This document shows positions 40,545-56,600 of a stretch of DNA of 64,000 nt, in pieces. This stretch comes from Dudresnaya verticillata. Lineage: Eukaryota. The position numbers and the translations under genes are program-made. The notes under the pieces were generated by a model. That model was not told where the DNA came from. It made no database searches and was given only the letters and a program-made list of their open reading frames with translations. The DNA lies in the NCBI GenBank assembly GCA_977862235.1, contig OZ374559.1:124001-188000 (forward strand), given 5' to 3'. Numbering within the stretch: the stretch's first letter is position 1; every line of letters starts with the position of its first letter.

Positions 40545-43476
40545 ATGCCACCGAAAAAGAAGAAGGGAGTGGCGGTGAGGTCTGTATCCAACACAGGACA
40601 GACCTCAGCAGACGTAAGAGCGCCTGTATCATCTGGGAATGATAGAGTTCTGTTCGGAGATGTCGTTAATGGAGCTACGCACAAGCGAGTCGACCCTCGT
40701 TCATGTGTCCCGTTGACCTACGTCCGCCCGATCTGCAGATCGGGCGTCGAGCGATTGAAGCGCATTTTCCGGGGGACCGACCGGTACAGTTCAGGGACAT
40801 TGAAGTCTCCCGTGGAAGGAGCTCCGGACTCTATCGGTTACGTGGCTGGTAGTGATATGCCTGTCGTTGTGCCATTGACAGGGGCATTGAGAAGCCGTGT
40901 GTCCGATTATTTCAGGTCACAAACAAGGAAGGACTGTAGCGTCGTTCCGAGAAAGAAGTTCAGGAAATTGTGAAATCGAGGGGGAAATGGTACGGAGTAG
41001 TTGATGGAATGCACAGATTGGCAGCTATTCGTGAGCTGCTTGAAGAAAATTACAACCAGTGGAAAACCTTTGACTGGTCTGTGCTGGAGCTGAACCCGCG
41101 GACCGACCTGGTGGTCCTGAAGCAATTCGCTAGACATCAGAATCGTAAGCACGAGGCAAACTGCTTCGTGGAAACTACCCTGTATAACACATTGAAGGGT
41201 CTGAAAGATGAGGCTGATCGCCTTCAAGCAGAGGGAAATGGTATCAAGCCGACAGCAAAAGCGGTTGCGTCCGCTTACGATGGGGGTGTTCATATGCACG
41301 AGAACACAGTGAAGCAGACAGCGCAAGTAGCTCTCCGACTAAGTCATCGTGTCATCGATGCGATAGGGGAGATAATGGGGGAGGAAATACCGCAGCTTGC
41401 ATTGGCTTCACGAAATGGAAGAACTGCTAAATCAGTAGCAGACGATGCCCTGATGTCGCCGATGGACTGCCGGGTTTTCCGGAAGTTTATTACTCTGAAC
41501 TCACTGAAGGCTGCCACAGAGTTCATGCGCGCGGGCCAAATGAGTGGCGTGGTACATGATGAGGGTGTGGAAGTCCAGGTCTCGACACTCTACCGCATTC
41601 GAGAAGTATGCAGGAGGAACGGGTTCAGGCCCGTGCTTTACGGGGTCACCAAATCAGAGTTCGGGAAGGCTAAAGATGCGCTAGCAGAGGTTCGCAAATT
41701 CGAAGGCCTTCGTGAATCTGAGGACTGGCCGGGTCCCATGGACACGATGCGGACAAATCTTCTGCGATCCCAAAAGTTTGATGGCGATATCATGCTTAAC
41801 AGGGGCAACGACACATTGATTTTGCAGTGCATTCTGGATAAGTACAAGGACTGTTGCCCGGAAGAGGCCCCCCTGAAGATCCACAAGTACAATTCTGTTA
41901 GAGAAAAGAATAGAAAGGAGGGCGACGAGGAGATGGCTTTGGATCAGGAGGATTTGAATGCAATTGCGACGGGAGTGCAAGATTCGGGGTATGTGAATTC
42001 CGATCAGGTAACGACCATTCGAAACACGGACCATCCCCGAGATGGACAGGAAGAACATGAACACGTATCCTCTCCTTCTGTCAATCTAGAGCCGTTACCT
42101 TGCAGTGGGGACCTTGGTTCGACCGGAGACCGTGTCTGTGACGATGCGGAAGATGTGCAGGGGTCGGCTGTAAAATCTGCAGCGACAGTGAGCACGGAAA
42201 AGTCAGAGAGGCTGGCTGTACGTGGGGACAAGAATACATCTGACCACAATTTGGAAGCCGACATCCTGAAGTCGTTCAGAATAACCTGCCATCAGATGCG
42301 GTGGCAGATATTCGACAAGAATGTTCGAGAGGGTGTTGGGGACCTATACGACACAGTTCTTACCGACACACCGTATGGAACGCCTGCATCACAGTCCGGT
42401 GCAGGGAAACAGTACGACAACTATATGAGTGATTCTGAAATATCTGATCTTGCAGAAATGTGCAGGCAATCCGTTGTGCCGGGAGGGTGGGTGTTCATGT
42501 TCGTGTCCTACCAGACATTCGAACCTATAAGGCAGGCTCTTCTCAAGGCCGGATTCATTTGCCCAACTTACGCCTTTTCGATTGCAAAGGATACACACAC
42601 GGTGCAGGAGAGGCGAGGAAATGACTGTCCCCAAAATGGCCACGAAATTGCCGTCATGGGAAGAGCCCCAGGACAACACCCAACGGATTTAAAGTGGATC
42701 TTCGAAGCCCGTACCAATTTGTGAAGGCCTCCGAAAAGAGAAAGTTTGCATGCATGTCCCAAATTCCTGTTTCTAAGAAGAAGCTTCTTAAACCGGGTAC
42801 CAAATCTCCGGTGCTTACGGAGGAGAAGAATGTTCAGCTGTTAGTGGAATTGTTGACGACCTTCTGCCCTGAGGGAGGTGCCATTCTGGACATGTATGTC
42901 GGAACGATGACAACTGCAATTGCAGCTATACAGACTGGTAGGAAGTGCACCTGCATAGAGCAGAGTCTACAGACGTATAGGCTTGCAGTTGCACGCTTGA
43001 AAAGGATAGCAGGTGATCATCGCAAATTGTCGGATGGGAGGGAAGGAACACCACTGTGTGATAGAGAGAAACAGGCCCTGGGAGAAGACCAGGGAGCGGC
43101 TGTGGAAATTCCGCAACAGAAACGGCTCGGGAATGAGGCGGAGAAGGATTCGGATTGTATTGCAGGAGGCGATGCTGTTGTTCTGTACGTCGGGAAGAAC
43201 GTTGTTGGGAAGGCAAAAGTCCAATTCGGGGCAACTTCTGAAGAAAAGGTTCGCAAGCAGATTTATCTGAAGCCCCTGTCGGAATACGAGAAGGCAGGAC
43301 AGGAACTCATTGCGGTTTACGCCTTCGAATGTGATTCATCCTTTACCACGTTTGCGTATCCGTATAACTTTCATGTTCCAAACGGCCGCCCTGCCACGAG
43401 CCTAGGTGGGCTAGACGGATTCTTTGCCTGGGATCTCCATGCGATGGAAGCCCACGCGCGATGCGAGCAGAAATGA
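40545..43476 (+). pseudogene. ParB/Srx-like domain fused to a permuted (beta-class) N6-adenine/N4-cytosine DNA methyltransferase; two frameshifts
   Basis: NLS-like MPPKKKK; ParB-like VRP...PVVV...YGVVDGMHRLAA; motif IV-like DTVLTDTPYG; VVPGGWVFMF; EEKNVQLL...CPEGGAILDMYVGTMTTAIAAIQTGRKCTCIEQ (SAM-binding motif I placed after motif IV). Frameshifts near 40930 and 42682. Confidence 0.85.
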
Positions 43477-53652: not shown

Positions 53653-56600
53653 ATGGCCCAAGCCTCATCTGGGCAGGTTTCGAAAGCAGCAAACGTTCCA
53701 GTTCAGAACGACGACGACTTCGGCGATGAGCTGCTTCCCGGAACAAAGCCCGGCGCACGAGTCATGCTCACTCTCAACGGGGAACACGTTGCTACAGCAA
53801 CCCTGCTACGACCCCATGATTTTAGGGAGGGTTCCGTTGATCCCAGTGGGCGATTCAGCACATACCTGCACGGGCGCAACCTTGGGCCTCAACAACGTGA
53901 TGGAGAAGTATGGGTTGTAGTTCACCTCGTGCGATGCCTCCACAACTGCAATTCCTACGAAAACCCGTTCCAGTACAAAACAGGCAGTACGCCTTGTCCG
54001 GAGACACTGAGTCGAATGCAGACTGGAAAACACGCCTGGGACCTATTCCAGATTGAGGATCTCGTAACCATCTACAATACAGAGCGCAGAAAAAGCTCAG
54101 GTGCAACTGTCCCCGGAGTGGAAAAACGAGCGGTGGCTGACGCTAACCCACCAACACCCCCTCTGCTCAGGGTTCGCAAACCCGATCCTCACCCAAAACA
54201 GCAGCATGGTGCGGAAGAAATGGCAGCGGTGAACAGTCCTTCAACACCACCGCCAGAGAAAGGCAATGAAGAGGAAGAAGTCACAAAACGTCTGCAATAC
54301 ACACCTGTACGCCGGCCACCTATGCGTGAACGACCCCAGAAACCACCCAAGAATAACGTTCCGGACGCCTTACCAGTCTCTTTGGCCCCAGTATCTCTTG
54401 AACCCACGACTACACCCGTGGAAGAGAGAGGTCCTTGTGTAGGCGTGAATGACAGAGTCGATGCAGATCTGAAACAAGACTCTGCTAGGGCTGTCAGATC
54501 TATTCCTTCTCGAGGAAAAGGAGCAAGCGACGAAGAGAACTGTATCACGCCCCAGCCATGCCCTGCACACAATGTCAGACGTACGCCTGAAAGCAGTTCG
54601 GGCTTTAGTAGCGGCGCACCTGAACCCGACCCTGATGCTACCCCGGCGTTGGCCGCGAGTACTAACACAGAGGGTGACGTGGAACGAACGCCGGGTGCTG
54701 ATGGCTCGGAAATAGAGCACGGTGAGGAGCAATCAGATGCTGCGACGTTGGATCTGGTGAGCGACGCAGAGGTGGAAGGTGGAAGTGATGGAATATTAGA
54801 AGACGAAGATACTGGAAGCGACCAGGAAATTGAGGACCTCACCAAGGACGCTTATTACGTGCCAAGTGCGACAATTTCACGAAGACGCACGGCAGCATAT
54901 GAGGCTGAACGTGTCCCGCAAACGCCCGGAGTTGCTGAGGATGAGACCAATGGCTCCCGAAAGAGAAGGTACCGCTTCTACGCAAGACAAAGAAAGAAGT
55001 TGAGGGTTGGTGATACTGCATTGCAAAAGCGTCGCAATGCTGCTCTGGAAAAGCTTGATGAAGAAGACTGGGGCTCCAAGGAGTGCTGCATGCGGAAGCA
55101 ATGCTTCAAGAGGGTATCGATTGTGTACATGAAAGCCGAGATTCGCAAACTGTTGCGTATGGACGCCCATGATCGACGAAACTATTTGCACGGGTTGTTG
55201 CAGCGACCGGGATGGAATTATTACTTCGACGGTAAGCCAGTATGCTACACGTTCCTGGAGACGGCGTTTGGGTTTTCCAGGGACCTACAATATTCAGTCA
55301 AACAGTTTGGTGGAAGCCGGCCTATGGAGGGTGAGAATGCCGTGCCGTATCAGCCTCCGAGTGAGGGCAGGGATAAGATACTAAGTTACCTCAACCGGCT
55401 TGCTGAGATAACAGCAAGCTGCATGCCCGACGCAGATGAGAAGCATCTGCCGTACTTTGATAAGGCTGCGGTCTACGAGAACTTCCTTCTGGACCAGGAG
55501 AGGCTGTATCCTGGAAAAGACCCACCTCGACTAAACTACTTCTACCACGTCTGGAAGCAGCACCGCAGTGACATAAAAGTCCGCAAAATCCAACGCTTCA
55601 CAAAGTGTTCGGAGTGTGAAGAATTTCGTGCAAGGCTTGCCAGGGCCGGTACAAACCGCAGACTCGCGGAGCCGTTCCTGCTCCATAGAAAGGAGCACTA
55701 CAAGCTGGTTACAAAGGAGAGGGTGTACTACAGGGAGAATACGGAAAAAGCTACTTTGTATCCCTCCGAGTACTGTTCACTGATAATTGATGGCGCGGAC
55801 CAGAAAGCGTTCGGAGTACCAAAGTTCGTGGTCAGCACGAAGGCTACGCGTGGACATGCCATAGCAACCAAAGTTGTGGGCGCATTGGAACACGGTTCAT
55901 TGAAGCACCTATCCCTGTTCGTCATGACAGGAGAGTTTGAGACCGGCGCAAATCACATGATCGAAACAGTCCATCGCCTTCTCACAGTCAAGCATAACCA
56001 TGGCACTCTGCAGCCTACGCTGTTACTGCAGCTAGACAACTGCACCCGGGAGAACAAAAATAAGTACATGCTTTCTTACCTGGAGTGCTTAGTGGCGTGG
56101 GGTGTTCTGCATGAAGTGCAGGTTTCCTTTCTCCCAATCGGCCACACCCATTCCGACATCGACCAGGCCTTCAGTTGCACAAGCAAGAGGGTCCGATCAA
56201 AAGACATGCCGACCATGTCTTGCCTTCTCCGCGAACTAAGCATGTCATACACGCCTCGTCCATCGGTGGCAAGGTTGCTGCAGGTAGCCAACTTTTCCGG
56301 GCTGTGTGACAAGTATGCGTGTATTGGCAAGACTGAAGCATTCTCACACTACAGATTCTTTCGAATTACTCGCCAACGTGGAAAGGGCATGGGCAGAAAA
56401 GCGAGATTCCGCACGCGATGCCTCGTCAAGATTCAGTGTGAAGATGAGTGGAAACCTCTTGTAACAGAAGCACGTGGCAACTCTCTCAAACAGGAAGGCT
56501 TCATACTATTCACCCCTGCCCTCGTTAAGACGCCAGAGACCATAGCGCGATGCCCACCTGATATGAAGGAGGTCAATGATCGCATACGTTGCACTGAAGT

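Follow-up and report, generated by a model that had tools for sequence, protein, structure and literature searches.

Giant DNA transposons of algae can carry accessory genes for DNA-modifying enzymes, and the described systems are given here as far as the accessible parts of their reports go. The Ectocarpus DNA transposon Sola1-1_Ec32 (21.5 kb) contains a gene for a ParB-like and N4-cytosine/N6-adenine (N4C/N6A) methyltransferase (MTase) of ~1100 amino acids (aa), a protein suggested to act on the element itself by binding and modifying it (PMC12477816). Red-algal elements of 17-19 kb carry the Plavaka-associated genes PAG2 and PAG3, a PF01555 methylase gene and a gene for a ParB/putative 2-oxoglutarate (2OG)-oxygenase, and these genes adjoin inverted-repeat arrays and move between transposon superfamilies (bioRxiv 10.1101/2025.02.11.637652). 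Enlarged En/Spm elements are also on record for Chondrus (PMC6431247). Such accessory methylase and oxygenase genes have been described so far, but they remain unexplained. Here we analyzed 64,000 nucleotides (nt) of the seaweed Dudresnaya verticillata (assembly GCA_977862235.1, contig OZ374559.1, positions 124,001 to 188,000, forward strand), called the window below, in which a 20.1-kb stretch is likely a DNA transposon with an MTase gene and a DUF7869 transposase gene. By profile comparison, the C-terminal tail of the MTase and the N-terminal head of the transposase are two old copies of one unnamed domain of ~100 residues, predicted to be a small SH3-like beta-barrel.

Sola1-1_Ec32 resembles the window element as a giant DNA transposon with a ParB-like and N4C/N6A MTase, a likeness of description. 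The elements with PAG genes share with it a methylase gene and an inverted-repeat or palindromic array nearby. In contrast, PAG2 combines methylase with SET where the window gene combines ParB, methylase and barrel, and the transposase of the elements with PAG genes is EnSpm/Plavaka whereas that of the window is DUF7869. The accessible description of PAG2 and PAG3 mentions no shared barrel, and the supplements of that preprint may bear on this point. No report of the shared domain was found in a literature search that included the accessible parts of PMC4738411 and PMC12730594 and was made without subscription journals, Repbase Reports and preprint supplements. Whereas ParB-MTase accessory genes on algal transposons are already known, the domain common to them and the transposase is apparently new.

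Methyltransferase tail and transposase head share one domain

A first-pass annotation of the window had noticed that the MTase tail parallels the transposase head in spacing and conserved residues. Both copies lie in frame on the plus strand (Table 1). Pairwise alignment with shuffling statistics gave a mixed answer: the Smith-Waterman score of tail against head was 46 with a z-score of 5.3 (5000 shuffles), although 47 is reached by an unrelated segment of the window, and the direct BLASTP match is weak (E 2.6; 19% identity). While direct comparison is therefore borderline, profiles of homologues settled the homology and bore out the parallel. When 42 homologues of the transposase were collected with the catalytic core only, the MTase tail matched the N-termini of seven of them (domain scores 14-34 bits, best 33.7). 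A profile of these seven foreign heads, built without any window sequence, gave 61.5 bits for the tail and 39.1 bits for the head, as compared to 8.8 bits for the next of 1326 six-frame window segments and 4.8 bits for reversed sequence. In the reverse direction, a profile made only from MTases, again without window sequence, gave 50.2 bits for the transposase head of the window. In tblastn this head was also matched by one foreign MTase tail with an E of 5e-5. Profile-profile comparison of heads with tails reached 99.7% (E 1e-26), a value that is partly circular since it was the head profile that had retrieved the tails. Neither head alone nor tail alone gave a match in word-index searches, and the ESM Atlas held no match at 0.9 or above for either copy. 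A third copy of the barrel was looked for in the window and none was found.

Structure models (AlphaFold) of the two copies were obtained from separate alignments, one of 8 heads and the other of 23 tails. Confidence, as predicted local distance difference test (pLDDT), was 86.1 for the head and 91.6 for the tail. The models have the same strand order and match the same set of folds, all of them SH3-like barrels (Tudor, PWWP, chromo, BAH, KOW, LSm and CAP-Gly). From these models, the fold matches reflect a common arrangement and not family membership; a PDB sequence search with the head profile gave no useful match.

Residues conserved across the three protein classes described below are V-x-L, V-G-x-A, L-H-G, L, Y-P-Y, P, L and W-D. 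Conservation within each class amounts to 32-37%, and a core of V, L, H, L, Y-P-Y, P and W-D is common to 51 sequences. The aromatic residues of Y-P-Y and the W look exposed and are conserved in all three classes. In the MTase tail of the window the family motif L-H-G reads I-Y-L, with H and G replaced. The median net charge is -3 for MTase copies, -3 for transposase copies and 0 for the third class.

The domain occurs at fixed termini of three protein classes

The profile of 8 heads was searched against 1.84 billion proteins and gave 173 matches at E up to 0.001, of which 150 were listed, including two query members; each listed match was classed by BLAST to the MTase and transposase cores of the window. 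The MTase class comprised 22 of the 150 listed (of 173), the domain lying no more than 2 residues from the C-terminus in every case, and the transposase class comprised 11 of the 150, all with the domain at the N-terminus. Among the 117 listed matches without a class, 75 were short, and the domain was N-terminal in 24, C-terminal in 15 and internal in 3, two of which look like repeat artefacts. When the 54 longer listed matches were scanned with Pfam, 19 had PF01555 and 4 had DUF7869.

Besides the two expected contexts, this listing revealed a third one. In four proteins of 1201-1377 aa the domain is N-terminal and is followed by a DGxHR region and a C-terminal H-x-D with a distal His-containing motif. 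Five partial proteins were added by similarity of the flanks, one of them weakly. DGxHR is present in 7/7 proteins, and the H-x-D with distal His-containing motif in all four full-length ones. We take these motifs to be those of a ParB-like part and a 2OG-oxygenase, and the third class likely consists of ParB-like/2OG-oxygenase proteins, an assignment for which Pfam, NCBIfam and PDB sequence searches gave no support. With PAG3, as described in the accessible text, this class agrees by architecture only. In an hhalign comparison with the MTases the barrel was the one region reported (99.2%). An oxygenase-like gene was looked for in the window, and none was found. The enzyme cores and the terminal domain are separated by poorly conserved linkers.

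For the history of the domain, a tree was made of 51 class-assigned domains (23 MTase, 19 transposase and 9 third-class copies), with 106 unassigned matches left out. Class labels change 6 times on this tree, as compared to 22 times in shuffles, yet none of the classes is monophyletic and most of the backbone is open. The window head groups as sister with a transposase head (P0001; support 98/88), and the window tail with an MTase tail (P0083; 96/70). A recent duplication within the element is disfavoured by the 19% identity and by the grouping of each copy with its own class; the formal test of this is given below.

Distances of domain and core were correlated for 11 transposases (rho 0.74, p 0.0002) and uncorrelated for 11 MTases (rho 0.10, p 0.26). 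The earlier description of the MTase as a co-evolved element gene thus stands in part: domain and core diverge together in transposases, but not detectably in MTases, and 35 of the 42 transposase homologues lack the domain in the predicted open reading frame (ORF). On the transposase core tree its presence is patchy (5 changes; 7/42 with the domain in the predicted ORF), which may reflect loss or truncated gene calls; the MTase relatives were found through the domain itself.

The methyltransferase and transposase genes

The MTase gene changes frame near 40950-40970 and again near 42640-42720. Intact relatives of 940-1055 aa align straight through both breaks; introns were therefore rejected and, judged from these alignments, the breaks are frameshifts or assembly errors. 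Being frameshifted, the window copy is likely dead. Its motif IV reads DTPY where intact relatives have DPPY. Neither these breaks nor the third protein class nor the palindromic array described below had been noted in the first-pass annotation.

The MTase belongs to the beta class by its PF01555 match and by motif IV standing ahead of motif I, and the family matches the sequences of the DpnA and CcrM structures with E values of 1e-13 to 2e-8. Like DpnA and CcrM, it has DPPY before the S-adenosylmethionine-binding motif; unlike them, it has a ParB-like N-terminus, a helical region and the barrel, and the catalytic motif is decayed in 7 of 11 relatives. The N-terminal part gave a weak match to a DGQHR domain (E 0.069) and contains a DGxHR motif that we take to be ParB-like. 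This motif, the weak match and the literature suggest that the N-terminal part may be ParB-like.

Eight positions of the tail do not vary among 11 near-full-length MTases, of which 4 keep DPPY, a contrast that is inflated as these proteins were chosen through the tail. In 10 full-length MTases, likewise chosen through the tail, conservation amounts to 34% for the tail, 32% for the catalytic domain and 13-15% for the linkers. Seven full-length open relatives (P0113, P0134, P0081, P0089, P0096, P0097 and P0078) have a decayed DPPY with ParB-like part and barrel conserved; judging from these motifs they possibly form a catalytically dead subfamily. No MTase relatives were found in viral or prokaryotic-genome contigs, and no transposase relatives in viral contigs.

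The transposase gene is open and encodes 1149 aa with the acidic motifs DGADQ (711), QLDNC (793) and GHTHSDIDQ (830), which we take to be the catalytic triad. Among the 42 homologues, DG[AM]DQ is present in 40 and GHTHxDxDQ in 41. The motifs QLDNC and GHTHxDxDQ show a possible resemblance to those of Sola-like transposases. Pfam matched this protein with DUF7869 alone and gave no match to an EnSpm-type transposase model.

A palindromic array follows the methyltransferase gene

The 9-nt half-site of the array has five matches in the whole window, where 0.28 are expected, and all five fall within 43974-44253. Full palindromic sites, near-perfect 21-nt palindromes, were found twice with 0 expected. 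From its sequence and position, this cluster is a candidate binding array for the ParB-like domain. A perfect 17-nt inverted repeat (44035-44051/44103-44119) frames the first palindrome.

Possible function of the shared barrel

We tentatively favour, at somewhat less than an even chance, that the barrel is a common address tag which binds one shared partner and so gathers the transposase and the DNA-modifying enzymes at the same place. The domain would then be a localisation module. Its partner would likely be a basic chromatin peptide or a host protein, and the shared ligand would co-localise the transposase with the DNA-modifying enzymes of the element, whose DNA the MTase would mark by means of its ParB-like domain and the palindromic array close by. 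Support comes from the position of the domain, which is set for each of three protein types: N-terminal in the transposase and in the ParB-oxygenase-like proteins, C-terminal in the ParB-MTase. A common external ligand is favoured on three grounds: many members of this fold class are peptide readers, the domain is acidic, and the accessory proteins are already equipped with a ParB-like part that likely binds DNA, with a palindromic array close by, as in the published account of PAG3. As computed from sequence, the net charge is more in keeping with a peptide ligand than with naked DNA. Chromatin-reader domains are known on other algal mobile elements (PMC12477816, accessible part).

Several results weigh against this localisation reading. 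The fold matches are weak, the best having Z 4.3 (root-mean-square deviation, rmsd, 2.6, 53 aligned) and Z 4.5 (rmsd 3.5, 56 aligned) and none reaching 5; they include many non-chromatin SH3-like folds, and Foldseek gave no significant match in PDB and BFVD (E 0.34 or worse). With 35 of the 42 transposase homologues lacking the domain in the predicted ORF, either it is dispensable for the transposase family as a whole or the gene models are cut short. Only in this window are MTase and transposase directly seen to be linked, and the 10 metagenome loci span 1.1-4.5 kb, too little to include neighbouring genes. One MTase (P0108) and one transposase (P0011) lie on contigs that are both 8751 long, a hint only, as it is one match among 14 MTase clusters looked up. 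Finally, forcing the two window copies together in the domain tree costs 16 log-likelihood units and yet is not rejected by the approximately unbiased (AU) test (p-AU 0.13).

It is possible, if rather unlikely, that the barrels are docking modules for one another, in homotypic or heterotypic pairs, by which the transposase recruits the MTase and the oxygenase-like protein into one complex; docking of MTase and transposase had been suggested in the first-pass annotation. The same domain sits on the transposase and on the accessory proteins, always terminal and on long linkers, and LSm-type barrels, which oligomerise, are among the weak fold matches; moreover, plant En/Spm TnpA and TnpD were modelled as a heteromer in the accessible part of PMC13547354. 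Such docking agrees less well with window copies that are only 19% identical and group each with their own protein class, with the lack of the domain in the predicted ORFs of most transposase homologues, and with an element that has no oxygenase-like gene.

We consider it decidedly unlikely that the barrel binds nucleic acid in the manner of NDX-B or the C-terminal barrel of TnpA and targets the three enzymes to element repeats or single-stranded DNA. Repeat arrays are present in the element, and KOW, LSm and a PWWP bound to single-stranded DNA occur among the weak fold matches; however, the MTase and transposase copies are net acidic, and both accessory proteins already carry a ParB-like domain.

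The spacing V-A/G..HG..L..V-V..P..T-L-G..aromatic-W may resemble that of PF03017, and the first-pass annotation had likened the domain to the TNP1-associated domain of En/Spm. Neither window copy matched PF03017 in Pfam (E up to 1), nor did the 8 heads, though HMMER filters drop weak matches, and PF03017 was not among the 25 of 30 Pfam families listed for 77 domain members. At the level of fold the likeness is plausible: by separate evidence the window barrel and the TnpA C-terminal/NDX-B barrel are both small beta-barrels.

Plant En/Spm TnpA (TNP1/Transposase_23) thus presents a comparable case, a small NDX-B-like beta-barrel on a transposon accessory protein (PMC13547354), and NDX-B is reported to bind DNA in vitro (PMC9420119). 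In contrast, TnpA-like domains are described in the accessible part of PMC13547354 as limited to flowering plants, and the window barrel is fused to transposase and enzymes. In Spm, too, a domain is common to the transposase and an accessory regulator, here TnpA (bioRxiv 10.64898/2026.08.24.746577). That DNA-binding domain, however, consists of tandem helix-turn-helix motifs, not a barrel, and arose by splitting of one gene, whereas the window domain is a beta-barrel on unrelated enzymes, as far as the accessible part of the same preprint (10.64898/2026.08.24.746577) goes.

That the domain is a functionless relic, a 5' piece of the transposase once copied onto the MTase and merely carried along, is very improbable: the window MTase is broken, its tail lacks the conserved H-G, and MTase tail and core distances are uncorrelated (rho 0.10, p 0.26), but each class is conserved at 32-37% with core residues common to 51 sequences, conservation is as high in the tail as in the catalytic domain, and the tail model is confidently folded.

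Returning to the localisation reading, the common domain ties genes treated as independent cargo into one likely system, and as a small, expressible unit, predicted to be well folded, it offers a direct route to the ligand. A chromatin-reading barrel would account for the targeting of DNA-modifying enzymes by the transposon that encodes them, and a match to the TnpA barrel would connect anti-silencing proteins of algae with those of plants. A wider proposal, which we regard as unlikely in its entirety, is that algal giant transposons run an epigenetic system of their own, with one reader-like barrel that is fused to the transposase, a writer of adenine/cytosine methylation and an oxygenase eraser or further modifier and steers all three to the same chromatin, this barrel being ancestor or sister of that of plant TnpA/NDX-B.

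The candidate element and its surroundings

The MTase and transposase genes both lie within one significant inverted repeat of 28 nt, whose arms match at 25/28 positions; the 300 nt that follow the transposase stop reached at best 22 when shuffled 60 times. Between its arms we found three ORFs, the MTase gene, the palindromic array, a nested long interspersed nuclear element (LINE), phospholipase D fragments and the transposase gene. This position, the 22 other MTases with the tail and the published ParB and MTase combinations support the MTase as a recurrent transposon-type accessory gene, and with it the earlier view that it is not chance cargo.

Table 1. Coordinates of the shared domain and of other features of the candidate element (window positions).
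Feature	Position	Strand	Evidence or remark
Inverted repeat, left arm, candidate terminal repeat	37073..37100	+	28 nt, 25/28 complementary
Three ORFs of unknown nature, inside left arm	37152-37466, 37969-38877, 39336-40052 (span 37152..40052)	-	No Pfam match above cut-off
Gene for putative ParB-like + beta-class N6A/N4C DNA methyltransferase + barrel, in three frames	40545..43476	+	PF01555, E 2e-8
Shared ~100-aa domain, C-terminal copy (MTase tail)	43165..43455	+	79 bits with pooled profile
Palindromic-site cluster, 500-780 nt past MTase stop	43974..44253	.	Perfect 10-1-10 palindrome 44067-44087; five 9-nt half-sites
Nested LINE (ORF1, endonuclease-reverse transcriptase), between MTase and transposase genes	44853..49009	-	PF00078, PF14529
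Broken phospholipase D-like cargo with seryl-tRNA-synthetase N-terminal fragment ahead	49860..51864	+	PF13091, PF00614, PF02403
DUF7869 transposase gene, open, 1149 aa	53653..57102	+	PF25273, E 1e-45
Shared ~100-aa domain, N-terminal copy (transposase head)	53746..54057	+	54 bits with pooled profile
Inverted repeat, right arm	57169..57196	-	67 nt past transposase stop

No exact target duplication of 4-10 nt was found beside the 28-nt repeat, and the element ends are therefore only candidates. Elements of the EnSpm/CACTA type (including Plavaka) have a CACTA/CACTG-type terminus and a short target duplication. The candidate terminal repeat starts with ACTTCCC and is not preceded by C on either arm, so that it lacks such a terminus, though the true ends may differ; duplications of 2-3 nt at the candidate ends were checked by eye only. 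Elements of the Sola superfamily have a target-site duplication of 4 bp, and none was found around the candidate ends of this decayed copy. Another inverted match of ~680 nt (34612-35289/57952-58556; 83% over the best 420 nt) flanks the whole element. It was rejected as the element ends as it abuts retrotransposon gag-like ORFs, and we read it as related retrotransposon ends in opposite orientation. Just beyond the right arm, positions 57306-57824 hold tandem repeats of 68 nt and a duplicated segment of 148 nt, with four exact copies of CGCGAAATTG, which may be the true end of the element or part of a neighbour.

The three ORFs inside the left arm gave no Pfam match above cut-off and no match to the fetched proteins, and the two longer ones no NCBIfam match above cut-off. 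A small group of ACGTGTACACG-type palindromic repeats lies at 49103-49205, just past the start of LINE ORF1. In the stretch 49860-51864, which comprises several ORFs inside the candidate element, a seryl-tRNA-synthetase N-terminal coiled-coil is in frame with phospholipase D-like sequence.

As a whole, the window is eukaryotic DNA rich in repeats, with a Sel1-Roc-TIR gene and Copia, Gypsy-type and LINE reverse transcriptases. The Sel1-repeat/Roc/TIR gene occupies 2747-9675 and contains a 1-kb duplicate with a second TIR domain (6647-7626 versus 8646-9649; 69% identical).

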